DNA from: an uncultured Clostridia bacterium
GTDB taxonomy: Bacteria > Bacillota > Clostridia > UMGS1883
Direction: 5' to 3'
DNA: 64,000 nt
Assembly (NCBI GenBank): GCA_934476455.1
Contig: CAKSNY010000001.1
Coordinates: forward strand, 23,673 to 87,672
The notes under the pieces were generated by a model, which was not told the origin of the DNA, did no database searches, and saw only the letters and a program-made list of their open reading frames with translations. Both the position numbers and the translations under genes were made by a program. Each line of letters opens with the position of its first letter. Positions within the stretch are counted from its first letter, which is position 1. Positions 11,673-63,118 of the stretch are shown here, in pieces.

Positions 11673-11677
11673 TTGTG

Positions 11678-33009: not shown

Positions 33010-33074
33010 ATTAGTGCCGGGCTTAATCAACGGAAAATGACTTTCCGGATATTGACCGAGAGGAGCAACAACAA

Positions 33075-34016: not shown

Positions 34017-34045
34017 CCTACCGATGCTCAGAGGAGAGAGAATAT

Positions 34046-34924
34046 ATGAAAAAATTAACTTTATCGCGCAAGGCGTTCCTTGTTTTTGATGTGACACTGC
34101 TGGCGCTTTTGATTGCAGTGTGCGCATATCCTCTTATCTATGTGCTGTTTGCTTCATTCAGCGACTCGAATTTACTTATCAAGCACAGCGGATTTTTGTT
34201 AAAACCGCTTGGGTTTAACATTATGTCATACAAGGCAGTGTTCAGCAACCCGATGATAGGAAAGGGATATTTAAACACCCTGTTTATACTGGTGGTAGGT
34301 GTAGCTATAAATATTATGATGACATCACTGGCAGCATATTTCCTTTCAAGGAGAAATGTTATGTTTAAAGCTCCCATTATGGCAATAATGCTTTTTACAA
34401 TGTATTTTTCCGGCGGTATTATTCCCAGCTATATTACAATTAAAAATTTGGGCTTGTACGATTCGCTATGGTCGCTTATTCTTCCCGTTTCAATCAGTAC
34501 ATATAACCTTATAATTATGCGTACATCTTTCCAGGGGATACCTGCAAGCCTTGAGGAAGCGGCATATCTTGACGGTGCAGGTCATTTAACAATAATACGT
34601 TATGTTATTTTGCCGCTTTCAAAGGCGATAATTGCCGTAATGGTATTATATTACGGTGTGGAATATTGGAACTCGTGGTTTAACGCAAGTATATATCTAA
34701 ACGACAGAAGCAAATATCCTTTGCAGCTTGTGTTAAGAGAAATATTACTGCAAAATGATATTTCAAATATGGCGGGCGGAGCTGAGGCAGGCGATGTGTA
34801 CAGTGTTGCCGAAAGTATTAAATATGCAGTAATCGTTGTTGCAACCTTTCCTATTTTATGTTTATATCCGTATTTGCAAAAATACTTTGTAAAGGGTGTA
34901 ATGATAGGCTCTTTGAAAGGATGA
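34046..34924 (+). CDS. Carbohydrate ABC transporter permease (LplC-like)
   Basis: Start trimmed to the ATG after GAGGAGAG. EAA motif EAAYLDGAGHLTIIRYVILPLSKA. Paralog of the 15820..16701 permease. Confidence 0.85.
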   Translation: MKKLTLSRKAFLVFDVTLLALLIAVCAYPLIYVLFASFSDSNLLIKHSGFLLKPLGFNIMSYKAVFSNPMIGKGYLNTLFILVVGVAINIMMTSLAAYFLSRRNVMFKAPIMAIMLFTMYFSGGIIPSYITIKNLGLYDSLWSLILPVSISTYNLIIMRTSFQGIPASLEEAAYLDGAGHLTIIRYVILPLSKAIIAVMVLYYGVEYWNSWFNASIYLNDRSKYPLQLVLREILLQNDISNMAGGAEAGDVYSVAESIKYAVIVVATFPILCLYPYLQKYFVKGVMIGSLKG

Positions 34925-39383: not shown

Positions 39384-42077
39384 ATGAGAAAAGCACAACG
39401 ATTTTTATGTATATTTTTTATAATCGGTATGTTTACAGTGCTATTTAACGGCAATACTGCTCAATCGGTATATGATGCGGAATGGAAGAGCATTTATGTA
39501 CAGGATTTTTCGTCAGAGGTAAACCTCGATAAAACGGAGAATACATCGTTTTTTTCGGTAAAAACAGACGGCAGTTTAAATGTAAGCTCGCACAGCATCT
39601 GTCAATTTGCCGTTAACAGTGAAAACCTGTCATCCGGTGAGAATTGTATAGGTATAAGTGTTGCATACCCTAATGCACGTATAACAAGGCTGCCGCAGCC
39701 GCTTGAATTTGAAGGTATTATGTATGAATATACCGGAAGCGGAAACAATACACACTTCATTGAGGAAATAGATGGTAAAAAGGCACTTAAGCTGTTTACA
39801 TACATCAATGCCGGCAAATACGGAACATCAGATGACAAAAGTGTGGTTCTTAGAACAAATTCTCCGAGACTTAGTGTTGAAGACGGTCATTTTACAAGTG
39901 AAGATAATTCTGTAACGGTCGAGATTGAATGTTACAGTACAGCTCAAAACGATGAAGACAACTGTTTACGTATTTACTATCCTAATACGCAAGGAGTTAC
40001 AAAAGCGTATACAATAACGCAGCAGAAAATGCGCGAAAAAGGAGACGGATGGGTTAAATTCGTAATAAACTTAACAGATGTAGATCTGACAAAAAAGCTT
40101 GGAGAGGGAAACACGTTTAAGATTTTAGAGGACAATTATTCGAGCAATGTAAATTATATTCACAGTTTTAAAGTTTATAAAACACCCGATACATCTGCGG
40201 ATGACGTTTCATTTACGGAGAATGACAAGTCGGTATCATTAAGCTTCGGTGACCGGGCGGTAGTTGGAAATGTGCGGGCTAAGTTTGACGTTCTTATTCC
40301 GAGCGGGGACACTGTGTCAAACACAATACCGTTTAACACGGGAAGTAATGCAATAAGAGCCGGTCTTCTGGATAAAAATAAAAATGCAGCACTTCTTTTT
40401 GAGATCAATCTTAACGACAATCGCACAGAAGCTGACAGCGGACGAATATATGTACTTTACGGCGACGGTGACGGTGCAGAAAATAAAAGACTGATTTATA
40501 CCGGAAACTTATACGGCAGGACGCTATCCTTTTCGGCAGAAACAAATCGAGAAGAAAAAACATTTTCAGCGAAAATTTTTGACAGCGGTGAAGAGCTTTT
40601 CTCGGGAGAAGATTTTACAGGTGGACTGCTTAATTCAAATTCGTATGAGGATATACAGTACTTCACCGTTATACAAAGCGGGTTGTCACACGCGGTTATG
40701 TGTGCAGCAGATAATATTTCAATAGAAGCACAGCAAATAATGGATTATAGTTATTGTGCTGAGGACTGTGCTGCCATTGAGAAGCTTATGCCTAAAAGTG
40801 GAGCGGATGTAACAGAAAATATTCAGCTTCCTACTATTGGTGAGATTCACCAAAGCAGTATAACATGGGAAAGCAGCAACACAAATGCGGCAGAAATAGT
40901 GAACGGCAGTCTATTGCTGCTAAAGCGAAATGAAAAAAATGAAAATGTAACAATTAAGGCAACTGTTGTCTGCGGGTGCGCTGTTTTAACAAGGGAGTTT
41001 GATTATTGCATTTTAGGTGTTGGAAAAATATATTCCGATATTACAGCGGATATTAAAAAATCTGTTTCAGAGTCTTTGGCGGAGAACGGCACTATTACCG
41101 CAAGTCTGAAATTTAACAACTATAAAATAACCGGACGAATTACGTTTGCGGCAGTCGTGTCCAATAAAATCACGGGAGAAAAAGTCGGAACATATACCGA
41201 TGTAAAAAATATTTCAACGACTTATCAGGATAACAGTTTTTGTATAGAAAATATAGTAAAGGGAGAAAATGACGATATAGAATATTATTTATGGGATGAA
41301 AACAATGTGTCTCTGAGAAATAATGCTCCTACGGATATAGAAAATATTTTGTGCACAGCGAAAGCAAAGGCTGTTCATTTGTCCTGGGAGCAAAGCTATG
41401 ATGATAATGAAGCAACTGTATATGAAATATATCGTAACGGAGTATTTATTAAAGAAACGGAAGAGTGTTCATATATAGATAAAAGCGTAAAGCAAGATAC
41501 AAATTATAATTATGAGGTAAAGGTAAGAGATACCAATAGGAATTCTGCAAACGGCGCTGTTCTATCAGCAAAAACGAAAAAAATGCTTTCGTGGAATGAA
41601 GGGACACAAGACGGTGTTGAAACCGTAGCTGTAACAGACCCTGAACGTGCGGCGTACAGCATAAAGACAACAGTTTCAGACAGTAACGAAAACACCTCAA
41701 CTTGTATGTGCGCGCCGCCCTCCAAACGATCCGGCGGCGGGGCGTATGCCATATTCTTCAAAGCTCCGAAAATAGGTAATGCAAATGATATTGCCGTTGA
41801 AGTAACATATTTAGACACTGATGGGTATCTTAATATGTCATATACCGAAATACGCCCTGATGGTGCATTGGAAAGTACATCGTACAATAAAAATGTGCGC
41901 CTTGTAAATTCTATGACAAATACGCGTACGTGGAAAACAATTACATATGTTTTGCATGGCGCACAATTCAGGCAATCAACGAATATGTCTTTGGCGGATA
42001 TTGGATTCAGTGCGGGTGCAGACAAGTATCTTTATATTAAAAAAATTGCTGTTATTGCGGAAGAAGATTATGAATGA
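39384..42077 (+). CDS. Secreted hypothetical protein with FN3-like domain and N-/C-terminal 'YYDYG'-type modules
   Basis: A signal peptide is present. FN3-like segment AVHLSWEQSYDDNEATVYEIYRNGVFIKETEECSYIDK. The C-terminal module (IAVEVTYLDTDGYLNMSYTE ... YLYIKKIAV) resembles the terminal modules of the 28805..31450 protein. Confidence 0.5.
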   Translation: MRKAQRFLCIFFIIGMFTVLFNGNTAQSVYDAEWKSIYVQDFSSEVNLDKTENTSFFSVKTDGSLNVSSHSICQFAVNSENLSSGENCIGISVAYPNARITRLPQPLEFEGIMYEYTGSGNNTHFIEEIDGKKALKLFTYINAGKYGTSDDKSVVLRTNSPRLSVEDGHFTSEDNSVTVEIECYSTAQNDEDNCLRIYYPNTQGVTKAYTITQQKMREKGDGWVKFVINLTDVDLTKKLGEGNTFKILEDNYSSNVNYIHSFKVYKTPDTSADDVSFTENDKSVSLSFGDRAVVGNVRAKFDVLIPSGDTVSNTIPFNTGSNAIRAGLLDKNKNAALLFEINLNDNRTEADSGRIYVLYGDGDGAENKRLIYTGNLYGRTLSFSAETNREEKTFSAKIFDSGEELFSGEDFTGGLLNSNSYEDIQYFTVIQSGLSHAVMCAADNISIEAQQIMDYSYCAEDCAAIEKLMPKSGADVTENIQLPTIGEIHQSSITWESSNTNAAEIVNGSLLLLKRNEKNENVTIKATVVCGCAVLTREFDYCILGVGKIYSDITADIKKSVSESLAENGTITASLKFNNYKITGRITFAAVVSNKITGEKVGTYTDVKNISTTYQDNSFCIENIVKGENDDIEYYLWDENNVSLRNNAPTDIENILCTAKAKAVHLSWEQSYDDNEATVYEIYRNGVFIKETEECSYIDKSVKQDTNYNYEVKVRDTNRNSANGAVLSAKTKKMLSWNEGTQDGVETVAVTDPERAAYSIKTTVSDSNENTSTCMCAPPSKRSGGGAYAIFFKAPKIGNANDIAVEVTYLDTDGYLNMSYTEIRPDGALESTSYNKNVRLVNSMTNTRTWKTITYVLHGAQFRQSTNMSLADIGFSAGADKYLYIKKIAVIAEEDYE

Positions 42078-42119
42078 ATGGACGATAATTATAATTTAAC
42101 CATGTTGATAAAGTGAGGA

Positions 42120-44453
42120 TTGCACCTAATGAAGAGAACGAAAATTAAAGAATTTTTTTCAAGCGACTTTTTCGGAACGATAATGGTTACGTTTTTTTCA
42201 ATATTTGCTATTCCAATGTTATCCGGTATAATTGCGCTTCATTTTGACGAAAACGCAATAAAGAAAGAGCTTGCGGAATCTGATAAAATAATGGTTACAA
42301 CCGTGCAGCAGCATATTGAAAGGCAGCTTGCAACAATTACATCAGCGGCGACCTCTGTTTCACACGATGCAAAAATAAGAGAAATTTCCGAAACGACAGG
42401 AAATGACCCGTACGAAACGGAAGTTTTAAGCAAAACCAATCAGCTGGCAAAATCATTATCCAAATATTTGGAGGTAGAAAAAAGCATAGACAATGTATAT
42501 GTTGTTTTTGGAAAAAAGGGAATTGTCGTTTCGCCTACAATGGTTGAAACAAACGAAAGCTTTTTTGAAAAATACTATAGAGAATCCGATTTTTTATTAA
42601 GTAAGTGGAATAGCATTTTAAACAGAAAATCTTACGGACAGTATTCAATAGTTTATGAAAATGAAAAAAAATATATTGATTTTTATTTTAGCAACTCCCT
42701 GATTTCAAAAAGAAATAATTCGGGTGAAACAATAGTTGTCAGAATTTCGGAAGCAGAATTCGGTAATTATGTATCCAAATTTCATTCCTTTACGGATAAG
42801 CAAATTTGTGTAATTGATAAAAACAACGATGTTGTACTGAATTATGGTGACCGCATATTAAAAAATTACAATTATGATAGCTACAACTCGATTATGAAAG
42901 CAGAAAAAACGGATGATTTTACGTATACAATGGCAAAATCGGGAAGCAACAACTGGAAGTATGTGTTGTCGACAAGCGATAAATATATTCAAAAAAAGGT
43001 ATATTACAATAGAATGTTGGTAATTGTAAATGTTCTGATTTATTTAATTGCTGCCATTATAGTTGTAAGTATATATATGGTAAAAAACTATATTCCGTTA
43101 AGAAGGATAATCAGTAAAGCAGACGGATGCAGTGCAAACAGTTATGATGCTCTTGAAAAAGTTGTATCGGAATATAATTGGTACAAGACATATGCACTGC
43201 GGTATAAAAGGCAGTATAACAAGGTGCAGACAGAGCAGTTTTTCTACAATATTGTTTCGTTTAACAGAAATCCGAAGGAAATTAAAAAGATAGCAGAACA
43301 TCTCAAAATAAGTCTTGTGTCGGATATGTTTACAGTCATACTGATAGACATATGTGATTATGAAAAATTATTTGAAGATGACGAAATTGACGAGGCTGAG
43401 CGCGTGGCGAGTGCGGAGTTAATAGTCAGAAATATTTTTGGTGAGCTTCTTTCTTCCATAGGCGTAGCATATTTCCTTTTGAAAGATGACAAGCAAATTT
43501 GTATACTGAATTTAAAAAATGAGGAAAACTGGAAACAGCGCGTGGCGGAAATTTTGCATAACGGTAAGGATGTAATCCAAGAACATTTTGAAATACCAGT
43601 GACAGTTTGCATAAGCAGATTGTCAGAAGGCTTGGAAAACCTGCGTAATGCCTACGTTGAAACTGTTGAAACCAATATGAAGCATTGGCTTGCCGTTGAT
43701 AACGAGATTGTGTTCTGCGAGCCTGTATCTGCAATTCATAATAAAACATATTACGATTGTTCAGATGCTGAAAAAATTCTTTCCTTTATAAAAAAAGGAG
43801 AAAAGGCACGCGGTATTGAACAAATGAAAAATACAATCAGGCGCTGTGCGAGTGACTCTGACTACGGAGAAGGAAAGGCAAAGATGTTTTCCGTGAAATT
43901 GATTGACGGTATTTATGATTATATATCCGAAGAAATAGAACCCGACAATAGGTTTTATGCAATTGTAAATCGGGTTTTATTGTTTAAATCATATGATGGT
44001 TATATTGCAGCGTTAGAGGAAATCATCAGATATGCGTGCAATATTCAGAATTTGAACAGTGTAGGCAGTATCTCAAAAACCGAGAAAGTATCGGCTGAAA
44101 ATATGGTTGAAACTATAAAGTCGTATATTTCCGCAGAGTATACTGACAGTACACTGAGCTTAACACGTATTGGTGAATATATGGGTATTACACCGTATTA
44201 TGTTTCACATACCTTCAAAAAGGTAACAGGTGAAAATCTTTCAGATTATATAAGTCGCTTCCGTATTGAGAAGTCAAAGGATGTTATATGTAACAATGAT
44301 AGAATTTCATCTGCACGTCTTGCGGAAATGGTCGGTTTTGGCAGCGAACGTACTTTTATACGGATGTTCAATAAATTCGAGAATGTTTCGGTAGGGCAAT
44401 ATAAGGCAATGCTTAGGAAAGATGATTATATTGAGAAAGGAAAGCAACAATGA
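42120..44453 (+). CDS. Transmembrane sensor AraC-family regulator (TM1 - extracytoplasmic sensor domain - TM2 - cytoplasmic domain - AraC HTH)
   Basis: Two hydrophobic helices (FGTIMVTFFSIFAIPMLSGIIAL and MLVIVNVLIYLIAAIIVVSIYMV) flank a ~260-aa extracytoplasmic segment. The C-terminal AraC HTH is LTRIGEYMGITPYYVSHTFKK ... GFGSERTFIRMFNKFENVSVGQYK. Confidence 0.8.
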   Translation: MHLMKRTKIKEFFSSDFFGTIMVTFFSIFAIPMLSGIIALHFDENAIKKELAESDKIMVTTVQQHIERQLATITSAATSVSHDAKIREISETTGNDPYETEVLSKTNQLAKSLSKYLEVEKSIDNVYVVFGKKGIVVSPTMVETNESFFEKYYRESDFLLSKWNSILNRKSYGQYSIVYENEKKYIDFYFSNSLISKRNNSGETIVVRISEAEFGNYVSKFHSFTDKQICVIDKNNDVVLNYGDRILKNYNYDSYNSIMKAEKTDDFTYTMAKSGSNNWKYVLSTSDKYIQKKVYYNRMLVIVNVLIYLIAAIIVVSIYMVKNYIPLRRIISKADGCSANSYDALEKVVSEYNWYKTYALRYKRQYNKVQTEQFFYNIVSFNRNPKEIKKIAEHLKISLVSDMFTVILIDICDYEKLFEDDEIDEAERVASAELIVRNIFGELLSSIGVAYFLLKDDKQICILNLKNEENWKQRVAEILHNGKDVIQEHFEIPVTVCISRLSEGLENLRNAYVETVETNMKHWLAVDNEIVFCEPVSAIHNKTYYDCSDAEKILSFIKKGEKARGIEQMKNTIRRCASDSDYGEGKAKMFSVKLIDGIYDYISEEIEPDNRFYAIVNRVLLFKSYDGYIAALEEIIRYACNIQNLNSVGSISKTEKVSAENMVETIKSYISAEYTDSTLSLTRIGEYMGITPYYVSHTFKKVTGENLSDYISRFRIEKSKDVICNNDRISSARLAEMVGFGSERTFIRMFNKFENVSVGQYKAMLRKDDYIEKGKQQ

Positions 44454-47077
44454 TAATCTCTAAAAAACAAAGACATCATTTATACGCTGCGGTAACGGTT
44501 ATTTTATTACTGACGCTTTGCAATATTACGGGATATGCAAGCAGCACCGATACAACATATGACGAAAGCCTTTCTGCGCTTAACGCCATGGGGGTTTTAA
44601 ACCTTCCGGATTCGGAAGGGGATAATCAAAATATTACACGTGCACAGTTTGCCGCAAATATTTTTAACATTGCGGGATATGAAAAGGTAAATCATCCGGC
44701 GGCGGATATACCGTTTTCGGATGTAAGTGTCGATTATGTGTATAAAGACGAGATATGCACACTTTATGATTTGAAAATTATAAACGGTACGGAAAACGGA
44801 TTCTTTTCACCCGAAGAACCTATAACATATGTACAGGCAGTTAAGCTTGCGGCAGACATACTTGGGTACAGAGAATATGTAAGCGTAAAATACGGAAAGT
44901 ATCCAAACGGGTATATATCAGCCGCCTATGATTTAAAGCTGACAGACGGGATAAAATCTCCTGTAACAGATATACCGTTAAACTTAAAGGATGCAGTTCG
45001 TTTTTTGTATAATACCGCGTGTTCTTTCGTTTCGGAGGGAGAGGAATATAAAACGAACGGAGGTATAACATACGCAAAAGACAACAGAATGCTCATAACA
45101 AAGGGACATAATATTTATTACGGTGAAGGAGTTTTAAAAAGTAACGGGGTATGTGCGCTTACCGGTGTGACGCTGAAAAAGGGTCATACAGAAATAAACA
45201 ATGAGGAATATATGATAGGAAAATGTGACGTTTTAAGCCTTCTCGGAAGCAAGGTAAAATATTTTTACAGAGAGGAAAAAGGCGGAAACGTTCTTTTGTG
45301 GGCGTCGGAGCATAAAAGCAACAAAACGCTGACAATAAACAGCCGTGACCTTATAACAGACGATACCGATTACAGCGCGGAAAAAATAATATATTATGAC
45401 AAAAACAAAAGAACGGCTGCCGAAATATCTCCGTTTGCAAGCATTGTTTATAACAATAAGCTGAGAAACAGTTCTCAAATAAAACCAAAGACAGGAAATA
45501 TAAAGCTTGTTGATAACAACAATGACGGAAGCTACGACACGGTAGTTGTTACTGAATTTAAAAATATGTTTGTTGTCAGCGTTTCGCAAAAAGGAAATTT
45601 CATATCAGACAGTTATAACCATAGCTTAAATCTTGATGATTACAATAATATATATATTTATGAAAATGGCGTACAGATATACCTTGATGATATAGGCAGT
45701 AAACGAATAATTTCATATGTAACAGATGCTGAAAAGGAAAATTTGTATATTTACGTATGCAAAAAGGGGGTGGAGGCAACCTTAGATGCTATCGGTGAAA
45801 AAAGTGGAAAAACAGTATACGAATTTAACGGAAAAGAACTTTATATGTCAGAGGAATATTTAAGTATCGGCGAAAATAATTACAACACAGTATTGCCAAA
45901 GGTGGGTGTAAGGTACTTGTACTATACAGATATTGCCGGAGATATTGCGGAAATAACGGAGGTATCCGGTAATATTTTGGAATATGCTTATTTGATAAAC
46001 GCTGCAAAGGATTCAAGACCGCTTGCAAAAGACAATTCGGCAGCGCTAAGGCTGCTTATGACAGACGGTAATATTATAACAGCATATACCGCAAAAGATA
46101 TTATTATTGACGGCGTAGGAAAAAAGAACGGCAGTGATATTCTTTCGGACAACAGGCTAAACACAGCAGCAGGCTTTAACGAACAGGTCATTAAGGTGCG
46201 CTTTACAAGCAGCGGAGAGTTAAAGGAAATCTGTTTTCCGGAAAATTGTAAATCGGAATACGGGTACGATGTAAAAAATTTTACAACTGATTTTGACGGT
46301 ACTGCAACATTTACGACAAATCGTCAGATTTACACATTTAACTATAAGTACAGCATATATCCGAACACAATTATTTTTGCAAGGTATGATAATATAAATG
46401 TAGATGAACCATACGCTGTTATTGATTACAATGCTCTCAAAGGAATAAAAAGGGCAAGGTTATACGATTGTGATAAAACCCTTTCGCCTTCGGTTGTTGC
46501 GGTTGAGCTGAACGGAGAAGTATACAGCGAAAATATGATTTTGGTTGACAATATAAAATACGAACAACAACAAGACGGTAATTTTTATAAAAAAATATAT
46601 GGTTACAGTTACGGAAAACCGTACGACTGTGTTGAGTATTACGAGGGTGTTATACCTAACGACTTAAAGCGCGGAGATGTTGTACGTGCTGCGCTTTTGG
46701 AACGAAGGGTTGTAAAAATTGAAAAAATAGTAAGCTTAAGTGAACCTCCCGCTCCGCGGCTGGACAATCTTGCAAGCAGCAATTTTTCAATAATTGTCGG
46801 GGAACTGTATGCTATAAGCGAACATGGAATAGTTACATTAAACCCCATAAATACGGCAAGCAGATTGACAACGTCTGCATATTCGTCTCAAACGAGCGGT
46901 CAACTGCAGATTTATGATACGGTAAATGATATAATACGCCCCGCTTTGTTTACAGAAATTATGCCGATTACACTGCCCTATTCGGACGGAACGCTTTGTC
47001 AAAACAACGGCAGTTTATGGGTTGTATTGTATAGAAAATATGAACATTTGAGAGATGCCATTGCGGTTTATTATTAA
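44450..47077 (+). CDS. Large secreted SLH-domain protein; paralog of 36697..39366 (N-terminal 320 aa identical), with a divergent C-terminal region
   Basis: See the repeat feature. The C-terminus ends RDAIAVYY, as in the paralogs. Confidence 0.6.
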   Translation: MIISKKQRHHLYAAVTVILLLTLCNITGYASSTDTTYDESLSALNAMGVLNLPDSEGDNQNITRAQFAANIFNIAGYEKVNHPAADIPFSDVSVDYVYKDEICTLYDLKIINGTENGFFSPEEPITYVQAVKLAADILGYREYVSVKYGKYPNGYISAAYDLKLTDGIKSPVTDIPLNLKDAVRFLYNTACSFVSEGEEYKTNGGITYAKDNRMLITKGHNIYYGEGVLKSNGVCALTGVTLKKGHTEINNEEYMIGKCDVLSLLGSKVKYFYREEKGGNVLLWASEHKSNKTLTINSRDLITDDTDYSAEKIIYYDKNKRTAAEISPFASIVYNNKLRNSSQIKPKTGNIKLVDNNNDGSYDTVVVTEFKNMFVVSVSQKGNFISDSYNHSLNLDDYNNIYIYENGVQIYLDDIGSKRIISYVTDAEKENLYIYVCKKGVEATLDAIGEKSGKTVYEFNGKELYMSEEYLSIGENNYNTVLPKVGVRYLYYTDIAGDIAEITEVSGNILEYAYLINAAKDSRPLAKDNSAALRLLMTDGNIITAYTAKDIIIDGVGKKNGSDILSDNRLNTAAGFNEQVIKVRFTSSGELKEICFPENCKSEYGYDVKNFTTDFDGTATFTTNRQIYTFNYKYSIYPNTIIFARYDNINVDEPYAVIDYNALKGIKRARLYDCDKTLSPSVVAVELNGEVYSENMILVDNIKYEQQQDGNFYKKIYGYSYGKPYDCVEYYEGVIPNDLKRGDVVRAALLERRVVKIEKIVSLSEPPAPRLDNLASSNFSIIVGELYAISEHGIVTLNPINTASRLTTSAYSSQTSGQLQIYDTVNDIIRPALFTEIMPITLPYSDGTLCQNNGSLWVVLYRKYEHLRDAIAVYY
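44507..45468 (+). repeat. Copy B of the ~962-bp direct repeat
   Basis: See copy A. Confidence 0.85.
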
Positions 47078-47108
47078 ACTGTATTAGAATGTGCGGAAAG
47101 GAAAAGAA

Positions 47109-48656
47109 ATGAAATACATATTTAAAATGGAAGAACACGAGCTCTGGTGGGGAGGTACTTCCACTGACGGGATTATTTCCCCGTTTGATAAATCTACGGT
47201 ATTAAAACACGATTTTAGGGTTTTGGCAGATAATCAATCAATGCCTATGTATATTTCAAATATGGGAAGATGTATTTGGTCTGAAGAACCGTTTGAGGTA
47301 AGCTTTTTAAGCGGTGAAATTAAGATTATAGGAAAAGACGTAATAATTGAAAAATTCGGAAATACATTAAGAGATGCATATACGGGTGCGTCAAAAAAAT
47401 ATTTTCCTCAAAAGGGTGAAAAATTACCGGAGAAGTTTTTTACAACGCCGCAATACAACACATGGATGCAGCTTGTATACGACCAAAGCCAAAAAGGTGT
47501 AATGGATTACGCAAAAAATATTATAAAGAACGGATTTGCCCCCGGAATTTTAATTATAGACGAGGGCTGGCAAAAAGATTACGGAAAGTGGCAGTTTGAT
47601 GAAATAAAATTCCCGGAACCAAAAAAAATGATTGATGAACTCCACGCTATGGGCTTTACTGTTATGCTGTGGGTTGTACCTTTTGTGGGAACGGACGGAA
47701 AAGATTATGCCATGCGTGTATTTAAGGGACTTTCACCCGATAAATACCAACAAAACTTTTTGCGAAATGAAAATGGGAAACCTTTAATAACAGAATGGTG
47801 GAACGGTTACAGTTCTATTTTAGATTTCACAAATGAATATGACAAAGAATATTTAGATTCACAGCTGCAATCGCTTATTGATGAATTTTCTATAGACGGC
47901 TTTAAATTTGACGGGGGATGTCTTGCCAGCTATTGTGATACACGTGCTGTAAACGGTCCGATTAACAAGATGTACACACCTGCGCAAAGAAATATAGCAT
48001 GGAATGAGTTCGGGCTTAAGTACAGTTATCATGAATATAAAGATACTTTTAAGGGCGGTGGGAAAAGGTGCATTCAAAGACTATTTGATAAATTTCACAG
48101 TTGGGACAACAACGGACTTAATACGCTTATCCCGAATGCTTTGTCAGCCGGGTTAATGGGCTATCCTTTTATATGCCCTGATATGATAGGCGGGGGCGAA
48201 TGGACTATTCGTGAAAATAATCAGAGGGTAGATATGGAGCTTTTTGTACGAATGGCGCAATGCAGCGCACTTTTCCCGATGATGCAGTTTTCTTGGGCGC
48301 CTTGGGAAGCTGTGGATAAACAGCATTTAAAGTATATAAAGGATGCACACGACCTTCATATAAGATTTGCGGATAGATTCAGAGCATTGGTTGAACAGTG
48401 CTATAAAGATAACGAGCCTGTTTTAAGAAGCCTTGAATACAATTATCCGCATTGCGGATTTGAAAGGGTGAAAGATATGTTTATGCTGGGAAATGATATC
48501 TTAGCCGCACCTGTTATCGTAAAAGGGCAAAAGGTTAGAAAGGTAACGCTTCCGCAAGGAAAATGGAAAGGTTTTAACGGAATTGAATATTATGGCAATA
48601 AAACATATGAAATACCGGTAACACTTGCAGATACAGTTTATTTCACCAAAATGTGA
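47109..48656 (+). CDS. GH31 family glycoside hydrolase (short form; alpha-glucosidase/alpha-xylosidase/alpha-galactosidase-like)
   Basis: IDGFKFDGG matches the GH31 nucleophile region (compare YicI VDCFKTDFGE). IIDEGWQ is also characteristic. No signal peptide. Start chosen at the ATG after GGAAAGGAAAAG. Confidence 0.6.
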   Translation: MKYIFKMEEHELWWGGTSTDGIISPFDKSTVLKHDFRVLADNQSMPMYISNMGRCIWSEEPFEVSFLSGEIKIIGKDVIIEKFGNTLRDAYTGASKKYFPQKGEKLPEKFFTTPQYNTWMQLVYDQSQKGVMDYAKNIIKNGFAPGILIIDEGWQKDYGKWQFDEIKFPEPKKMIDELHAMGFTVMLWVVPFVGTDGKDYAMRVFKGLSPDKYQQNFLRNENGKPLITEWWNGYSSILDFTNEYDKEYLDSQLQSLIDEFSIDGFKFDGGCLASYCDTRAVNGPINKMYTPAQRNIAWNEFGLKYSYHEYKDTFKGGGKRCIQRLFDKFHSWDNNGLNTLIPNALSAGLMGYPFICPDMIGGGEWTIRENNQRVDMELFVRMAQCSALFPMMQFSWAPWEAVDKQHLKYIKDAHDLHIRFADRFRALVEQCYKDNEPVLRSLEYNYPHCGFERVKDMFMLGNDILAAPVIVKGQKVRKVTLPQGKWKGFNGIEYYGNKTYEIPVTLADTVYFTKM

Positions 48657-48734
48657 TATGAAATACCACGGTGAAAATATAAGGCAGAAAATAAAAAAAG
48701 ATATTTTAATATGCAGACAGAAAGGCTGAAAATA

Positions 48735-49829
48735 ATGAATACATACAAGAGTGCTCTTGAATATGCAAAAATGTGCTGTGATACAATTATGCGCAAATTC
48801 CCTGCAAAGGAGCTTCCGCCCAAAGGAAGATTTCATTACCACGCGGGGGTGTTTTTGTCCGGTATGGAAAGATGCTTCCTTCTAAATGGAATGGAAAAAT
48901 ATAATGAATATATAAAGGCTTTCATAGACGAGTTTGTTGATAATAACGGAAAACTTAACAATGCTAATTTGGAAAAATTAGACGATATGCAGCCTTGTAA
49001 TTTGATGTTCCGCTACTGTAACCGGGATGACAGATATAACAAAGTGCTTGACAGTGTTGTGCCGCGCCTGCTTACATGGAAAACAAATAAGTACGGCGGA
49101 TTTTGGCACATGGGAGATACACCTGATCAAATGTGGCTTGACAGCCTTTATATGGGCGGTCCGTTAGCTGTCAGATATGGACTTTCGAGGGGTAAGCGCG
49201 AATATATAGAACTAATTCATAAGCAAATGGAACTTATGTTTAAAAATATGCGTAATAAAAAAACAGGGCTTTTGTACCATGCGTGGGATTGCAGTAAAAA
49301 AGAATTATGGGCAAATCATGAAAACGGTTGTTCGGGCTTTTTCTGGGGCAGAGCAATTGGATGGGTAATTGTTGCAACAGCAGATATTGCCGAATATCTC
49401 GGAGACGACGTTCTCGCACGAAGCTTTATGGATCGTGCGGTCGAACTTACTATGGCAGTTTTAAAATATCAGGATCCAAAAAGCAATTTATGGTTTCAGG
49501 TTGTGGACAAGGGAGATGATCCTGATAATTGGACGGAAACATCGTGTTCGTGCCTTTTCTTATACGGTTTGTGTAAACTGATAAGAATGGGAGCTATTGA
49601 CAATAAGTATATAGAAAGAGCAGAAAAAGCTTTTCACGGAATTATAAAAGAAAAAACGTATGAAGAAAACGGAAATTTTATTGTAAAGGACATATGTATA
49701 GGAACCGGCGTCGGAGATTATAAACACTATATAGAGCGTCCAACGGTTGAAAATGATTTGCACGGAACAGGGGCATTTACACTTATGTGTACGGAATATG
49801 AAAAAATGCAGCGTAAGTGGGAGAAATAA
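48735..49829 (+). CDS. GH105/GH88 family unsaturated rhamnogalacturonyl/glucuronyl hydrolase (YteR/YesR-like)
   Basis: QMWLDSLYMGGP matches the catalytic Asp region of the YteR family. The (alpha/alpha)6-type composition and the ~365-aa size fit. Confidence 0.7.
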   Translation: MNTYKSALEYAKMCCDTIMRKFPAKELPPKGRFHYHAGVFLSGMERCFLLNGMEKYNEYIKAFIDEFVDNNGKLNNANLEKLDDMQPCNLMFRYCNRDDRYNKVLDSVVPRLLTWKTNKYGGFWHMGDTPDQMWLDSLYMGGPLAVRYGLSRGKREYIELIHKQMELMFKNMRNKKTGLLYHAWDCSKKELWANHENGCSGFFWGRAIGWVIVATADIAEYLGDDVLARSFMDRAVELTMAVLKYQDPKSNLWFQVVDKGDDPDNWTETSCSCLFLYGLCKLIRMGAIDNKYIERAEKAFHGIIKEKTYEENGNFIVKDICIGTGVGDYKHYIERPTVENDLHGTGAFTLMCTEYEKMQRKWEK

Positions 49830-49849
49830 CAAAGTAAGGAGATGTTAAA

Positions 49850-51250
49850 ATGAAAAAAACAGAGGTAACGTTTGCGCTGTTTTTCGGAAACCGCGGGTTT
49901 TTCCCCGGCGAGGTTATAGCAAGCGCGCGTAAGGAAATGATCGCCGCCGTTACAAAAAACGGTTTTGACTATATCTGTATGGACGAAAGCCTTACCCGCT
50001 ACGGCGCTGTTGAAACACGCGCCGAGGGGAAAAAATATGCGGCTTTTCTTGAAGAAAACAGGGGCAAGTTCGACGGTATAATTTTGTGTATGCCCAATTT
50101 TTCCGATGAAAACGGAGCAGCAGAGGCGCTTAAGGGGATAGATGTACCCGTGCTTGTGCAGGCATATCCCGACGAGCTCGGAAAAATGGATTTTGCACAA
50201 AGGCGCGATACCGTCTGCGGAAAGTTTGCAATGTGCCATGTACTTCGTCAGTGCAAAATAAATTTTACATTAACAAAGAAAATGGCAGTATCGCCGTCTG
50301 ATGAAGCATTCTCGGAGGATTTAAAGCGCTTTGGTGCAATCTGCCGTATTGTAAAGGGAATGAAAAGCTTCAGCATAGGCGCTATGGGTGCAAGAACAAC
50401 AGCCTTTAAAACCGTAAGGGCAGACGAAACCGCACTTCAGGGAAAAGGCATTACGGTTGAAACAATAGACCTTTCGTATATATTCGACTTAATGGAAAAG
50501 GTCGAAGCAAAGCAGCTTGAAGAAAAGAAAGAATATTACAGGGGCGTTGCGTCCTTTGGCAGTTATCCGGAGGAAAAGCTTACAAATATAGCAAGGCTCG
50601 GAGCAGTGTTTGACAATCTTATAGAGGAATACGGTTTAAATGCCGTTGCCGTAAGATGCTGGGATGAATTTGTAACGCAGTACAATATAGCGCCGTGCCT
50701 TGTATTAAGCGATCTCAACGAGAAAGGCATACCTGCGGCGTGCGAGCTTGACGTAAACAATGCTGTTATGATGTATGCGCTGTGCCTTGCCTCGCAGGAG
50801 CCTGTAATGCTGCTTGACGTAAACAATAACTACGGTACATCGGAAACAAAGAATATAATGTTCCACTGCTCTGCGGTTCCGTCGTCATTTTTTAAAGAAA
50901 AGCCGTATATTTCCGAGCATTTGATGTTTAAGAAAAGCTACGGCGAAGGAACGGGCGTGGGTATTCTTAACGGAAAAATTAAAAGCGGGAAGGTAACCGT
51001 CGGAACAATTAAAACAGAGGACGGCAAAATCAGCGGTTTTACCACAGACGGAAAGCTGACCGATGACGAATTTGATAAGGAATTTTTCGGCACGGGTATT
51101 GTGTTTGAAAACAAAAACCTTGAAGGAATATTTAAGTTTATGTGCGAAAACGGCTATAAGCACCATGTTGCAATAGCAAAGGGCGAATGGTCAGACAGTG
51201 TGAAAGAGGCGCTTGAAAAATACCTCGGATATAATATAGATATACTGTAA
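49850..51250 (+). CDS. L-fucose/L-arabinose isomerase family protein (FucI/AraA-like, ~466 aa)
   Basis: The overall pattern fits the short FucI-related isomerases (COG2407-type). The N-terminal Rossmann-like region is FALFFGNRGFFPGE. No signal peptide. Confidence 0.55.
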   Translation: MKKTEVTFALFFGNRGFFPGEVIASARKEMIAAVTKNGFDYICMDESLTRYGAVETRAEGKKYAAFLEENRGKFDGIILCMPNFSDENGAAEALKGIDVPVLVQAYPDELGKMDFAQRRDTVCGKFAMCHVLRQCKINFTLTKKMAVSPSDEAFSEDLKRFGAICRIVKGMKSFSIGAMGARTTAFKTVRADETALQGKGITVETIDLSYIFDLMEKVEAKQLEEKKEYYRGVASFGSYPEEKLTNIARLGAVFDNLIEEYGLNAVAVRCWDEFVTQYNIAPCLVLSDLNEKGIPAACELDVNNAVMMYALCLASQEPVMLLDVNNNYGTSETKNIMFHCSAVPSSFFKEKPYISEHLMFKKSYGEGTGVGILNGKIKSGKVTVGTIKTEDGKISGFTTDGKLTDDEFDKEFFGTGIVFENKNLEGIFKFMCENGYKHHVAIAKGEWSDSVKEALEKYLGYNIDIL

Positions 51251-51260
51251 AATGGAGGAA

Positions 51261-52157
51261 ATGAAAGTGAATAAGCTTGGCATTTTTATGAATTTTTGGG
51301 AAAAGAACTGGGATGCAGACCACGCAAAGTATATAAAAAAGGCAAAGGCTATAGGGTTTGACGTTTTGGAATTTCAGGCGCAGCCGCTGCTTGAAATGTC
51401 GGATGAAAAAATACGCTCTTTAAAAGCGCTTGCCGATGAAACAGGTATTGAGCTTACATACAGCCTCGGACTGGATCGGGCGTACGATGTTTCATCTCTT
51501 GACGAAACGGTAAGACTTGGCGGGGTTAAATATCTGCAAAACATAATAAAGAAGATGTATGTCGGCGGGGGAACGCTGCTTTCCGGCGTAAGCTATGCAG
51601 GGTGGGGAACACCCGACAATTTTAACGGCGACAAACGCCCGTATTGGGAACAAAGCGTAAAAAGTATGCGCGAGATAATAAAAACAGCCCAGGAGTGCGG
51701 CGTTACCTATTGTGTGGAAGCGGTAAACCGTTTTGAAACGTGCCTTATAAACACAGCGGAGGAAGCGCTTAAATATACAGAAGAAATAGACAGCCCGAAC
51801 ATTGGGGTGCTGCTTGACACGTATCATATGAATATAGAGGAAAATAACATAGGCGATGCAATAAGGCTGGTCGGAAAAAGGCTGACAAGCTTTCACACAG
51901 GGGAAAACAACCGCACGGCACCGGGCAGGGGACATATAAACTGGGACGAAATATTTAAAGCGCTTGCCGATATTGAATATAAAGGGAGAATAATATCCGA
52001 GCCTTTTGTAACGGAAGGCGGAGAGGTAGGGCGCGATATACATGTGTACCGCAATCTTGTAGAAAACCCGTGCGAGGGAACCATCGATAACGAGGCAAGA
52101 TTCCTTTTGAATTTTGAAAAGAAAATGCTTGAAAAATATATGTGCATAAATATATAA
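51261..52157 (+). CDS. Ketose 3-epimerase (D-psicose/D-tagatose 3-epimerase family; xylose-isomerase-like TIM barrel)
   Basis: FHTGENNRTAPGRGHINWDEIFKALADIEYKGRIISEPF closely matches the DPEase/DTEase signature (FHTGECNRRVPGKGRMPW ... IMEPF). Start chosen at the ATG after GGAGGA. Confidence 0.7.
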   Translation: MKVNKLGIFMNFWEKNWDADHAKYIKKAKAIGFDVLEFQAQPLLEMSDEKIRSLKALADETGIELTYSLGLDRAYDVSSLDETVRLGGVKYLQNIIKKMYVGGGTLLSGVSYAGWGTPDNFNGDKRPYWEQSVKSMREIIKTAQECGVTYCVEAVNRFETCLINTAEEALKYTEEIDSPNIGVLLDTYHMNIEENNIGDAIRLVGKRLTSFHTGENNRTAPGRGHINWDEIFKALADIEYKGRIISEPFVTEGGEVGRDIHVYRNLVENPCEGTIDNEARFLLNFEKKMLEKYMCINI

Positions 52158-52182
52158 TGAAAAAATGAAAGGAAACGAAGAA

Positions 52183-54375
52183 ATGATTGTATATGACGGC
52201 AGTACAAATATTTTTCACATTGCAACAAAAAACACCTCATACATAATGCGCCTTAAATGCGGCAGCATACTTGAGCATCTGTATTACGGAAAGCGCCTTC
52301 AAAATATCGACGGGATAGAGCTTTTCCCCGATGATGAAATAAAGAATTTTGCAGCGGTTGACTGTAGAGTGGGCGCGGATGGTGCGCGCCTTTCAACAGA
52401 GTGTATAATGCAGGAGTACGCTTTTTTCGGAAGTGCGGATTTGCGCAAGCCGTCGTTTCACGCACAGTATAAAGACGGCAGCAGAATTACAAAAATGAAA
52501 TATGCGGGGCATAAAATTTACAGCGGCAAAAATGCGCTTTGCGGCTTGCCCTCGACATGCGAAGGAGAGGATAAAAACGTTCAAACGCTTGAAATCACTC
52601 TTTTTGACGAGCTTACAGGGCTGAAGCTTATTCTTTTGTATTCCGCATTTGAAGAAAAGGACGCAATTGTAAGAAGTGTTCGTGCGGAGAACAGCGGAAA
52701 CAGCCCGATAGACATTAAAGAAATAATGAGTATGAGTATTGATATGGCGGACGATGGGTATGATTTTTTGCACCTTCCCGGTTCGTGGGCAAGGGAACGC
52801 CATATAGAAAGAAAGCCGCTTATAAGCGGAACAATGAAAATTGAAAGCCGCCGCGGCAGCAGCTCGCATCATCACAGCCCGTTTTTTGCACTTGCAAAGA
52901 AAGAAGCGACGGAATACAGCGGCGATGTTTACGGATTCAGCTTTGTTTACAGCGGAAACTTTGAAGCGGGGATAGAAAAAGACACATACAATACAATCCG
53001 TGCTTTTATGGGGATAAACTCGTTTGACTTTAGCTGGCGCCTTGAAAGCGGAGAGGCGTTTACCGCACCCGAGGTTGTTATGATATATTCCGAAAACGGA
53101 TTAACGGATATGTCGCAAAGATTTCACAATCTTTATAAAAAGAACCTGGCGCGCGGGAAGTGGCGCGACAAAGAGCGCCCGATTCTTATAAACAACTGGG
53201 AGGCAACGTATTTTGACTTTGACGAGGAAAAAATACTTCAAATTGCAAAAAAAGCAAAGAGCGTAGGGATAGAGCTTATGGTGCTTGACGACGGCTGGTT
53301 TGGGAAAAGGAACAGCGACAATTGCTCCCTAGGTGACTGGACGGAAAACCGCGAAAAGCTGCCGCACGGCATAGACGGTCTTGCAGAGGAGATTGAAAAG
53401 CTTGGAATGAAGTTCGGGCTGTGGTTTGAGCCTGAAATGGTTTCGCCCGACAGTGACCTTTACAGGGCGCACCCCGACTGGTGCCTGCACGTTGAAAACC
53501 GCGAAAAAAGCTTGGGGCGAAACCAGCTTATACTTGATTTATCGCGGGAGGACGTGTGCGGGTATGTGGTATCGTTTCTTACGGATATTCTTAAAAGGGC
53601 AAAAATATCGTACGTAAAGTGGGATATGAACAGAAATATGACAGAGGTCGGCTCTGCGCTTCTGCCGCCGCAAAAACAGGCAGAGGTTTCGCACCGCTAT
53701 ATGCTTGGGCTGTACAAAATCCTTGAAACAATCACAAAGGAATTTCCGGACGTTCTTTTCGAGGGGTGCAGCGGCGGCGGCGGAAGGTTTGATGCGGGAA
53801 TGATGCACTACTTTAATCAGTACTGGACAAGCGACGATACAGATGGGGTTGAGCGCATATACATACAGTACGGCACAAGCATTGTTATGCCGCCCACCTT
53901 TATGGGAGCGCATATATCCGATGTTCCCAATCATCAGACGCAGCGTGTAACGCCGATGAAGCTTAGGGCAGACGCTTCATTGTGCGGGCAGTTTGGCTAT
54001 GAGCTTGACATAACAAAAATGAGTGATGACGAATTAGAAGAGGTTAAAAAGCAGATAGAATTTTATAAGTCCGTACGCGATGTAATACACAACGGCGATA
54101 TGTACCGTCTTGCTTCGCCGTTTGAAGAAAGCCGCGCCGCGTGGGAGTTTGTATCGGAGGATAAACAAACGGCTGTTTTGTGCAGTTATATTATAAAAAA
54201 GCTGCCCGGAATGAAGCACGGAAGAATTAAAATGCGCGGGCTTAAAGAAAACGCCCTTTACCGCATAAGGGGAACGGAGCATACCTTCGGCGGCAGTGTT
54301 TTGATGAATTACGGCATAAGGGCAAAGGAAGAAAAGGATTATGACAGCGAAATTTTGGTTTTTGATATGATATAA
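52183..54375 (+). CDS. GH36 alpha-galactosidase
   Basis: The N-terminus MIVYDGSTNIFHIATKNTSYIM is typical for AgaA/MelA. The GH36 catalytic motifs KWDMNR and CSGGGGRFD are present. ~730 aa. Confidence 0.85.
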   Translation: MIVYDGSTNIFHIATKNTSYIMRLKCGSILEHLYYGKRLQNIDGIELFPDDEIKNFAAVDCRVGADGARLSTECIMQEYAFFGSADLRKPSFHAQYKDGSRITKMKYAGHKIYSGKNALCGLPSTCEGEDKNVQTLEITLFDELTGLKLILLYSAFEEKDAIVRSVRAENSGNSPIDIKEIMSMSIDMADDGYDFLHLPGSWARERHIERKPLISGTMKIESRRGSSSHHHSPFFALAKKEATEYSGDVYGFSFVYSGNFEAGIEKDTYNTIRAFMGINSFDFSWRLESGEAFTAPEVVMIYSENGLTDMSQRFHNLYKKNLARGKWRDKERPILINNWEATYFDFDEEKILQIAKKAKSVGIELMVLDDGWFGKRNSDNCSLGDWTENREKLPHGIDGLAEEIEKLGMKFGLWFEPEMVSPDSDLYRAHPDWCLHVENREKSLGRNQLILDLSREDVCGYVVSFLTDILKRAKISYVKWDMNRNMTEVGSALLPPQKQAEVSHRYMLGLYKILETITKEFPDVLFEGCSGGGGRFDAGMMHYFNQYWTSDDTDGVERIYIQYGTSIVMPPTFMGAHISDVPNHQTQRVTPMKLRADASLCGQFGYELDITKMSDDELEEVKKQIEFYKSVRDVIHNGDMYRLASPFEESRAAWEFVSEDKQTAVLCSYIIKKLPGMKHGRIKMRGLKENALYRIRGTEHTFGGSVLMNYGIRAKEEKDYDSEILVFDMI

Positions 54376-54405
54376 TCAAAAACCTATGTAAAAAAATGGA
54401 ATTGG

Positions 54406-54446
54406 TGCGGCAGCTTAAGCTGCCGCATTAGTTTTTGCCTTTTTAC
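54406..54446 (+). terminator. Rho-independent terminator (tgcggcagc-ttaa-gctgccgca + T-rich tail) ending the glycosidase/isomerase operon
   Basis: A 9-bp GC-rich stem and tetraloop followed by ttagtttttgcctttttac, 30 bp after the GH36 stop codon. Confidence 0.7.
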
Positions 54447-62386: not shown

Positions 62387-63118
62387 ATGAAAACGGCAGT
62401 TATAACAGGTGGTATCGGCGGTATCGGATATGCGATAAGTACGGCACTTTCAAAAAGCGGGTTTAAAACGGTAATATTTGATGTGGCGGATGAAGAAAAG
62501 GCAGCGGAAAAAACGGCACAGTTAAACGAATGTGTATATGTTCGCGGGGATCTTTCAAAGGCAGAGGACAGAGAAGGGCTTGTTTGCCGCGCGGGAAATA
62601 TAGACTTGCTTGTAAACTGCGCCGGCGTTGCCCCGCGCGTTCGGGCAGATATATTAGAGGTTACGGAGGAGGATTTTGACTTTGTAACAAATATAAATAT
62701 TAAGGGAACATTTTTCCTTACGCAGCTTGCCGCAAAAAATATGATTGAAAATAAGACGTGCGGAAGGATTGTAAATATATCTTCCATGAGCGCATATACT
62801 TCTTCCGTAAACCGTCCGCAGTACTGTATATCGAAGGCAGGCGTAAGTATGATAACAAAGCTTTACGCCGACAAGCTGGCAGAATACGGAATAGGGGTGT
62901 ATGAAATACGCCCGGGTATTATAAAAACCGATATGACCAAAACGGTTGAAGGTAAATACGACCGCCTTATAAACGACGAAGGAATTTTGCCGATAAAGCG
63001 CTGGGGCTATCCGGAGGATATTGCAAAAGCTGTTGACGCGATAGCTTTGGGGGCGCTTCCGTACAGCACGGGCGAGGTAATAAACGTAGACGGCGGATTT
63101 CATCTCAGAAGACTGTAG
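62387..63118 (+). CDS. SDR family NAD(P)-dependent oxidoreductase
   Basis: The TGGIGGIGYAI cofactor motif, NISS and the catalytic Y-x3-K (YCISKAG) are present. 243 aa. Confidence 0.8.
   Translation: MKTAVITGGIGGIGYAISTALSKSGFKTVIFDVADEEKAAEKTAQLNECVYVRGDLSKAEDREGLVCRAGNIDLLVNCAGVAPRVRADILEVTEEDFDFVTNINIKGTFFLTQLAAKNMIENKTCGRIVNISSMSAYTSSVNRPQYCISKAGVSMITKLYADKLAEYGIGVYEIRPGIIKTDMTKTVEGKYDRLINDEGILPIKRWGYPEDIAKAVDAIALGALPYSTGEVINVDGGFHLRRL

Follow-up and report, generated by a model that had tools for sequence, protein, structure and literature searches.

A portable gene pair encoding a predicted aldose-ketose isomerase and a ketose 3-epimerase in uncultured Clostridia

Aldose isomerases and ketose 3-epimerases are combined in the one-pot rare-sugar schemes known as Izumoring, where an aldose isomerase works together with a D-tagatose 3-epimerase (DTE), and sometimes with a stereospecific kinase, as in the conversions galactose-tagatose-sorbose, arabinose-ribulose-xylulose and fucose-fuculose-6-deoxy-sorbose. 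The isomerase AraA acts on L-arabinose and also accepts D-galactose, and the ketose 3-epimerases are mainstays of industrial allulose and tagatose chemistry; to our knowledge, the native role of the characterised ketose 3-epimerases is largely unknown. A pair of genes with the same two predicted reaction types, in the same order, is described here from a 64-kb stretch of DNA of an uncultured Clostridia bacterium (contig CAKSNY010000001.1, positions 23,673 to 87,672; hereafter the window). The first gene, ISO (49850-51250, plus strand, 466 aa), encodes a predicted metal-dependent aldose-ketose isomerase of an uncharacterised subfamily within the AraA/FucI/SqvD superfamily, and the second, EPI (51267-52157, plus strand), encodes a ketose 3-epimerase of the DTE/D-psicose 3-epimerase (DPEase) family. 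The Izumoring schemes are artificial mixtures of enzymes from several organisms, whereas ISO-EPI is a natural operon conserved across genomes, and targeted full-text literature searches found no description of an isomerase-3-epimerase gene pairing as a natural conserved operon, nor anything on the sugar that such a pair would use.

It is quite likely that the two enzymes of the cassette work one after the other on a single free sugar, which is probably of plant origin. As to which sugar, a tentative reading is put forward, with a probability of about 0.4, in which a galacto-configured aldose (D-galactose or L-arabinose) would be converted to D-tagatose or L-ribulose and then to D-sorbose or L-xylulose. 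The series from galactose through tagatose to sorbose had been offered as an example in a first-pass annotation of the window, and it is the reading that best fits the flanking alpha-galactosidases.

The isomerase and the epimerase

The isomerase is remote from characterised enzymes in sequence. Its only Pfam match is Fucose_iso_C (58.3 bits against a cut-off of 29.3, residues 337-464), and no match to the N-terminal FucI or AraA (Arabinose_Isome) domain models was found at E<=1e-3. Among characterised enzymes, ISO comes nearest in sequence to the sulfoquinovose isomerase SftI/SqvD, a short PF02952-only isomerase, and in the sulfo-EMP2 pathway SqvD works with a kinase, a PF01116 class II aldolase and a ring-opening/mutarotase helper (PMC9594981). 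On the NCBIfam SftI model, however, ISO reaches only 110.8 bits (residues 65-453 aligned, E 7e-32), far below the cut-off of 700 for orthologues, and it is not an orthologue; nor is SqvD paired with a 3-epimerase. Sulfoglycolysis was rejected on the grounds of this score and of the window's GH31 (glycoside hydrolase family 31) enzyme, which is of the alpha-galactosidase type and not a sulfoquinovosidase. A Pfam scan covered approximately 38 open reading frames of the window, about 10 of which gave no Pfam match, and no sulfolactaldehyde (SLA) reductase, transaldolase or exporter was seen among them.

Sequence searches of the PDB, with ISO as a single sequence and as a 50-sequence family profile, found nothing; the family question was settled by a fold search. 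The AlphaFold2 model of ISO (pLDDT 91.6, pTM 0.92) was aligned by Foldseek over its full length to L-arabinose isomerases (E. coli 2AJT, G. kaustophilus 4R1O and T. maritima 7CWV) with TM scores of 0.80-0.83, E values of ~1e-24 and ~13% identity, and more weakly to FucI and D-arabinose isomerase (TM ~0.73, E ~1e-16), at a probability of 1.00. According to the model, ISO is a full-length three-domain protein of the AraA/FucI fold, in agreement with the FucI/AraA-like isomerase named in the first-pass annotation; a reassignment to a non-isomerase family, which that annotation had named as a ground against its reading, is not indicated by the fold. ISO probably shares the metal-enediol aldose-ketose chemistry of AraA, from which it differs in its low identity, in the lack of an Arabinose_Isome match or of similarity at the level of hidden Markov models, in having Asp as the putative second acid, as in FucI, and in not being found in araBAD operons. 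Residues E299, D301, D323, H339, H438 and H439 are invariant among its homologues, and the spacing of the putative acid/acid/His/His set E299/D323/H339/H438-439 resembles that of the AraA set E306/E333/H350/H450; hhalign against an AraA sequence gives the same register, but at a non-significant E=0.33. More than 5441 clusters of homologues (90% identity clustering) were recovered at E<=1e-10, and a library clustered at 50% identity holds a handful of full-length representatives above 35% identity, so that the clade is compact but very abundant. Taken as a whole, ISO belongs to a remote, uncharacterised branch of the AraA/FucI/SqvD superfamily. In another sample of the window's species (L093:8567-9984), ISO is called as two pieces of 82 aa and 386 aa with EPI and the flanks intact; the split reflects a frameshift, a nonsense variant or an error of assembly.

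The assignment of EPI is more direct. The protein matches PF01261 (133.8 bits) and reaches 383.8 bits, against a cut-off of 300, on the NCBIfam equivalog model NF051856, 'D-psicose 3-epimerase' (PsicseEpim), with residues 7-293 aligned to profile positions 1-287 of 287. Far lower scores were obtained on IolO (127.4 bits), IolE (23.5 bits), hydroxypyruvate isomerase and UlaE/SgbU, and the AP endonuclease model gave no match in this profile scoring. Reassignment to an inosose dehydratase or AP endonuclease subfamily, raised in the first-pass annotation as grounds for abandoning its ketose 3-epimerase call, thus finds no footing, and the FHTGENNR...PGRGHINW signature on which that call relied is present in EPI (...SFHTGENNRTAPGRGHINWDEIF...). 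The best solved relative is the DPEase of C. cellulolyticum (Cc; 3VNI), aligned end to end at 2e-75. Along with this enzyme and those of A. tumefaciens (2HK0) and P. cichorii (2QUL), EPI shares the TIM barrel, the metal ligands and the residues binding O1-O3: the metal and catalytic residues E156, D189, H215 and E250 correspond to Cc E150, D183, H209 and E244, and E162, H192 and R221 to Cc E156, H186 and R215. All seven are kept in 54/54 ISO-linked homologues, and by sequence EPI is a bona fide member of the ketose 3-epimerase family with its catalytic machinery intact.

The C4-C6 pocket sets EPI apart within this family. Its residues F12/W20/S71/V113/W118/F252 are invariant among ISO-linked homologues, and three of the six positions of the DPEase-type pocket (Cc Y6, W14, G65, A107, W112 and F246) differ invariantly, the changes relative to the C. 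cellulolyticum enzyme being Y6F, G65S and A107V, with H66L as a further invariant change outside these six positions. The pocket is presumably nearer to the pattern of the broad-specificity D-tagatose 3-epimerase of P. cichorii than to that of the DPEases. This difference bears on specificity and not on family membership; EPI belongs to a distinct subclade of a known family, marked by F/S/L/V at Cc 6/65/66/107 and by the N-terminus MNKLGIFMNFWEKNW. The open reading frames themselves were found exactly where they had been reported (49850-51250, 466 aa, and 51252-52157, both on the plus strand), but 51252 is only the beginning of the maximal EPI frame, and a start there or at 51261, as previously annotated, is unlikely. 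The GTG at 51267 is the probable start codon, since it lies behind a GGAGGA at 51254-51259, yields the N-terminus MNKLGIF common to 54 homologues and agrees with a 296-aa metagenome product.

EPI is also genomically locked to ISO, unlike the C. cellulolyticum-type enzymes. The possibility that the characterised DPEases derive from the ISO cassette finds no support in a locus (L084) whose product is 90% identical to the C. cellulolyticum enzyme and which is not beside ISO; there the gene is preceded by one for an FAD-binding oxidoreductase, with a two-component system and ABC (ATP-binding cassette) permeases close by. The N-terminus of the C. minuta DTE, taken from a published primer, was not found in the ISO-linked EPI set. 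In Petroclostridium sp. X23 (CP124862.1), a DPEase homologue is the last gene of a LacI-RpiB-SIS-ABC(ribose/allose type)-PfkB operon that by its gene content looks like an allose/psicose utilisation locus, and in one further locus (L086) ISO-EPI is followed by a gene of the RpiB family. Both observations would suit a route in which ISO turns D-allose or D-altrose into D-psicose and EPI turns this into D-fructose, with exogenous allulose possibly entering at EPI. Such a route would agree with a score above the curated D-psicose 3-epimerase cut-off, and the frequency of two-gene operons would be accounted for, since fructose as the product would not call for special genes further downstream. It is nonetheless considered distinctly unlikely: the guts of herbivores and humans contain little of these sugars, which is at odds with so common a cassette, the pocket changes Y6F, G65S and A107V separate EPI invariantly from the characterised DPEases, the characterised type of DPEase stands apart from ISO, and psicose phosphates are 3R and unfit for the class II aldolase of the related loci described below.

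Conservation of the cassette and its alternative wiring

The gene pair was compared across 83 loci around ISO homologues of 56-86% identity, 75 of which had enough downstream sequence to be evaluable, almost all of them from uncultured gut or rumen Clostridia (goat, sheep, yak, rabbit, mouse and Hadza humans). One of the loci (L030) is on a closed chromosome, CP091722.1, and homologues also occur in isolates of Faecalimonas, Borkfalkia and Christensenellaceae. EPI lies directly 3' of ISO in 54 of the 75 (72%), with a median gap of ~21 bp, and within 3 kb in two more, and a search started from EPI homologues recovers ISO again. EPI is the better conserved of the two, at a median identity of 75% versus 60% for ISO. 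A divergent upstream regulator of the PocR-AraC type occurs in 33 loci and a LacI regulator in 10, and 21 loci are bare two-gene operons. It seems most improbable that the two enzymes are co-located but work on different substrates, for instance with two sugars feeding one ketose pool; EPI reactions are freely reversible and some loci manage without EPI, as shown below, but the spacing is tight and often near-overlapping, the pair is co-conserved over this whole range of ISO identity and the linkage holds in both search directions. One rearranged locus (L096:9001-16612) has the order EPI, a PocR regulator on the opposite strand and ISO, followed by a MarR gene and a 1224-aa GH141-like gene. 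The GH141 family includes alpha-L-fucosidases.

In the window, ISO and EPI are co-transcribed between GH31 and GH105 genes upstream and a GH36 gene downstream, the five plus-strand genes being tightly packed with gaps of 54, 20, 1 (16 with the EPI start at 51267) and 7 bp. The types of these neighbours given in the first-pass annotation are borne out by Pfam and PDB matches. The GH31 gene (47091-48656) carries Pfam GH31 domains and matches the GH31 alpha-galactosidase structures PDB 8J50-8J53 at 401-409 bits. The GH105 gene (48711-49829) encodes a YteR-type unsaturated rhamnogalacturonyl hydrolase (PF07470, 305.9 bits; B. subtilis YteR 1NC5, 316 bits), and the GH36 gene (52165-54375) an alpha-galactosidase (Melibiase, 548.6 bits, with GH36 N and C domains). 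The GH31 protein also matches MYORG at 177 bits, as compared with ~405 bits for 8J50-8J53, and is thus of the short MYORG / GH31 alpha-galactosidase type and not an alpha-glucosidase or alpha-xylosidase.

The pair had been presented as a feature of this GH31-GH105-GH36 operon, a view that the comparison does not uphold. Homologues of the window's GH105 and GH31 stand beside the cassette in none of the 83 loci, and the full window arrangement recurs only within the same species (on 19 contigs, drawn from several samples). In a relative whose ISO is 77% identical, the cassette is bare and adjoins TrkH/TrkA, the same chromosomal neighbourhood as in the window. The G+C content is 0.44-0.46 over ISO-EPI-GH36 (50000-54000) versus 0.34-0.40 upstream (42000-50000), a step consistent with the cassette having a history separate from that of the rest of the locus. 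Given the bare cassette next to TrkH/TrkA, the rise in G+C and the missing GH105/GH31 linkage, ISO-EPI is a portable, autonomous cassette that the window lineage has embedded in a large glycan locus.

This has consequences for two substrates suggested by the window's pectin-related genes. It had been proposed that the pair processes the GH105 product 4-deoxy-L-threo-5-hexosulose-uronate (DKI); in this reading, which can be extended to other uronates, ISO would replace KduI or UxaC. The adjacency of GH105 and GH28 in the window speaks for this proposal, as do the ability of DTE-family enzymes to act on keto-uronates, the 127 bits of EPI on IolO, a related-locus kinase that scores best on IolC and the CitMHS anion transporters in L040. 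The comparative data give it no support, however, in that no co-occurrence with GH105 or GH88 was found in the 83 loci; the score of EPI on IolO falls far short of that on the free-ketose epimerase model; and DKII reaches 2-keto-3-deoxygluconate (KDG) without C3 epimerisation. As first annotated, no KduI/KduD-like protein was found among the scanned window open reading frames, with the exception of a generic FabG-like short-chain dehydrogenase/reductase (62387-63118) about 10 kb away. The replacement of KduI was rejected because of the missing co-occurrence, and the uronate route as a whole is highly improbable. L-Rhamnose, which YteR-type enzymes release together with unsaturated galacturonic acid, would follow from the position of GH105, whose gene ends directly upstream of ISO, and from the GH28 gene in the locus and the PocR regulators; ISO would turn it into L-rhamnulose (3R,4S) and EPI would turn this into 6-deoxy-L-psicose (3S,4S), a 3R-to-3S logic that suits a class II aldolase of the tagatose-bisphosphate type. 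Neither GH105 nor GH78 or GH106 is a recurrent neighbour, however, none of them being listed among the top families, the epimerisation would run uphill from threo to erythro, and the loci with an aldolase and no EPI, considered next, count against rhamnose as well, making it very unlikely.

In 15 of the 75 evaluable loci, the gene behind ISO is one for a class II aldolase and not EPI, and in 10 of these 15 aldolase-type loci a PfkB kinase comes next after the aldolase. The aldolase belongs to PF01116 and scores 244.8 bits on TIGR00167 ketose-bisphosphate aldolase (cut-off 215.6). Further orders are PfkB-aldolase-DUF4432-ISO-PfkB in L025, ISO-EPI-aldolase in L002 and L003, and ISO-EPI...PfkB in L040, and distant ISO relatives (49% and 42% identity) immediately precede an F_bP_aldolase gene and have an FGGY kinase after it or close by. 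These sister loci, with ISO-aldolase-PfkB or -FGGY, share the three-step logic of the fucIKA and rhaABD operons, from which they differ in that their aldolase is of the FBA/TBP class II type (PF01116, 3S) and not FucA/RhaD (PF00596, 3R); in the window, the epimerase replaces both kinase and aldolase. The aldolase-type loci are nested among EPI-type ISO clades, and an alignment of the two groups has one discriminating column, with 106 columns at least 97% conserved in both and no differences in the active site. To judge from this conservation, the ketose made by ISO is very likely the same in the two wirings. A search of the aldolase-type loci for EPI-like genes gave none within 10 kb at E<0.01.

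The presence of aldolase and kinase in the sister loci implies that the route is not phosphate-free in general. The unphosphorylated route suggested in the first-pass annotation agrees with the window, where no sugar kinase or aldolase family was matched among the scanned open reading frames, as had been noted; it does not agree with the 15 loci with an aldolase, 10 of them with PfkB. This comes close to the canonical kinase and aldolase that, according to the annotation, would have spoken against its suggestion, but the genes lie in sister genomes and not in the genome of the window.

The same loci are of importance for a fucose-type route, in which L-fucose, L-galactose or D-arabinose would give a (3R,4R) ketose that EPI converts to the (3S,4R) products 6-deoxy-L-sorbose, L-sorbose or D-xylulose, followed by phosphorylation and cleavage by an FBA-type class II aldolase or by entry into the pentose phosphate pathway; this would constitute a non-orthologous replacement of FucI/FucK/FucA. 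Class II dihydroxyacetone phosphate aldolases of the FBA/TBP type are restricted to 3S ketose phosphates in both synthesis and cleavage, a configuration that EPI would create here, and erythro-to-threo ketose epimerisation is thermodynamically downhill. The route is also in keeping with the fucose-isomerase C domain as the sole Pfam match of ISO, the ISO-EPI-aldolase and ISO-EPI...PfkB orders just described, a putative GH151-like fucosidase in the window, the GH141-like gene near ISO in L096 and PocR-type regulators, which are known from propanediol regulons. It is weakened by the 15 aldolase-type loci, where ISO has an unchanged active site and no EPI is nearby, and where a 3R ketose could not be cleaved. 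In addition, fucosidases of families GH29 and GH95 do not figure among the common neighbours, the fold of ISO is closer to AraA than to FucI, and support for a 6-deoxy sugar was sought in microcompartment (BMC) or glycyl-radical genes, none of which occur among the 25 most frequent families around aldolase-type loci. On balance, the fucose-type route is unlikely.

Proposed route and its weighing

The aldolase-type operons are compact, have their own regulator and are more deeply conserved, which suggests that they are self-contained; if so, the 3S-only specificity of their aldolase would mean that the product of ISO is a 3S ketose. A galacto-configured substrate is proposed because of the two flanking alpha-galactosidase-type genes in the window, the neighbours found elsewhere and the AraA-like fold. 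Among 164 co-oriented neighbours, the commonest glycosidases are GH36 or GH36-like (7 Pfam matches and an 11-locus family distantly related to T. maritima GalA), and GH51 and GH127 arabinofuranosidases, GH2, GH4, GH31 and GH16 also recur, as do ABC importers, DUF4432 and DUF4867 helpers and several phosphoesterases. From the mutarotase-like DUF4432 beside ISO and the glycosidase neighbours, we infer that the flow is from aldose to ketose; the substrate is likewise deduced from its surroundings.

In the proposed galactose/arabinose route, neighbouring glycosidases would release the free aldose in the cytoplasm, where ISO and EPI would act on it. ISO, as a Mn-type enzyme of the AraA/FucI fold, would turn the aldose into the 2-ketose, a chemistry predicted from its fold and conserved residues, and EPI would invert C3 of the ketose through a metal-bound enediolate, as expected from its family and catalytic residues. 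In the aldolase-type loci, D-tagatose or L-ribulose (3S,4S) would be phosphorylated and then cleaved, or possibly 4-epimerised, and in the EPI-type loci, including the window, the (3S,4S) ketose would be converted to D-sorbose or L-xylulose (3R,4S). The EPI step, which here too would run downhill from erythro to threo, would pull an unfavourable isomerisation forward. At C3 and C4 its product would have the configuration on which kinases and aldolases of the rhamnulose type act. A degrader of rhamnogalacturonan I (RG-I) such as the window organism should possess these systems, and the final ketose would pass to a kinase and an aldolase encoded elsewhere in the genome.

Several points weigh against this proposal. 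The substrate is assigned from genomic context, and the mapping of the ISO catalytic residues onto AraA depends on residue spacing and on a non-significant hhalign result. We know of no mainstream fate for D-sorbose or L-xylulose in anaerobes, and neither the window nor the loci showed the expected kinase and aldolase of the rhamnulose type. The Leloir and AraBAD routes, usually present in gut Clostridia, would render the cassette route redundant. The equivalog to which EPI is assigned by score is a D-psicose 3-epimerase, the gene order of L002, ISO-EPI-aldolase, is more in line with a conversion from 3R to 3S than with the one proposed, and there are some pointers to L-fucose in the GH151-like protein (22838-24850), in the GH141-like gene of L096 and in the Pfam match of ISO, which is to a fucose-isomerase C domain. 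An extension of the galactose/arabinose proposal is a natural 'Izumoring' shunt, in which the (3R,4S) ketose made from an abundant plant aldose, galactose or arabinose, would enter a rhamnulose-type kinase/aldolase system; otherwise, the cassette may mark the catabolism of a sugar of dietary or microbial origin that is so far unrecognised in the gut. This is held to be unlikely. If true, the shunt would operate independently of Leloir and AraBAD and would give the ketose 3-epimerase family its first physiological role in gut anaerobes.

The surrounding locus and the significance of the pair

Upstream of the five-gene run, approximately 45 kb of glycan-utilisation genes lie on the same strand, including a GH28 with S-layer homology (SLH) domains, AraC-type regulators, two ABC importers, a GH2, the GH151-like protein, a DUF4432 gene and several ~880-aa SLH proteins. 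The long plus-strand array ends 3' of GH36 at a strong intrinsic terminator (54398-54435, plus strand; its 17-bp stem includes 7 G-C pairs and leads into a T-rich tail), past which unrelated genes for a PBP5-type carboxypeptidase, TrkA and TrkH are found. The combination of GH31, GH28, YteR-type GH105 and GH36 suggests alpha-galactosylated rhamnogalacturonan as the target of the locus. The aldose-1-epimerase-like DUF4432 gene (26025-27026, plus strand; PF14486, 289.9 bits, with a weak Aldose_epim match) is a possible mutarotase for the ISO substrate, and its homologues adjoin ISO directly in L025 and come after ISO-EPI in L052. An ABC importer with one substrate-binding protein and two permeases (31447-34924, plus strand; Pfam SBP_bac_1 and BPD_transp_1) is a possible supplier of the oligosaccharide; homologues of 47-65% identity lie immediately upstream of a PocR regulator and ISO-EPI in L018. 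Just before GH36, inside the 3' end of EPI, a promoter-like site (52129-52158; TTGAAA, an 18-nt spacer and TATAAT) has 11 of 12 consensus matches and may be an internal promoter.

Other features recur around the cassette. Three window paralogues of ~880-1050 aa (36697-39366, 44450-47077 and 11669-14824) have SLH or F5/8 domains and no catalytic Pfam domain, with relatives near ISO-EPI in L010, L020, L073 and L075, and they are candidates for unrecognised glycan-active enzymes. A family of ~800-aa proteins without a Pfam match occurs in tandem directly upstream of ISO-EPI in three loci (L087:2373-9987, L060 and L050), where it adjoins GH51 and ABC permeases. A block of metallophosphoesterase, GH2 (with DUF4982) and PHP phosphoesterase genes, often with GH51, stands beside PocR and ISO-EPI in L010, L016, L020, L021, L035, L071, L098 and L099; HAD phosphatases also occur near the cassette, and a GDPD gene is present in L040. 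The phosphoesterase-rich neighbours hint that the glycan source is phosphorylated or linked by phosphodiesters.

The ISO subfamily widens the AraA/FucI/SqvD superfamily and is a possible source of new biocatalysts. An EPI subclade locked to ISO across thousands of sequences from Clostridia of gut and rumen provides a concrete setting in which the native function of ketose 3-epimerases can be tested. In a survey of allulose use, only AlsE was considered and use was concluded to be rare in the gut (PMC12216980); a widespread free-ketose epimerase would change the picture of the fate of allulose there. The cassette also suggests a missing step in the use of sugars from pectin, arabinogalactan or alpha-galactosides by uncultured fibre degraders.

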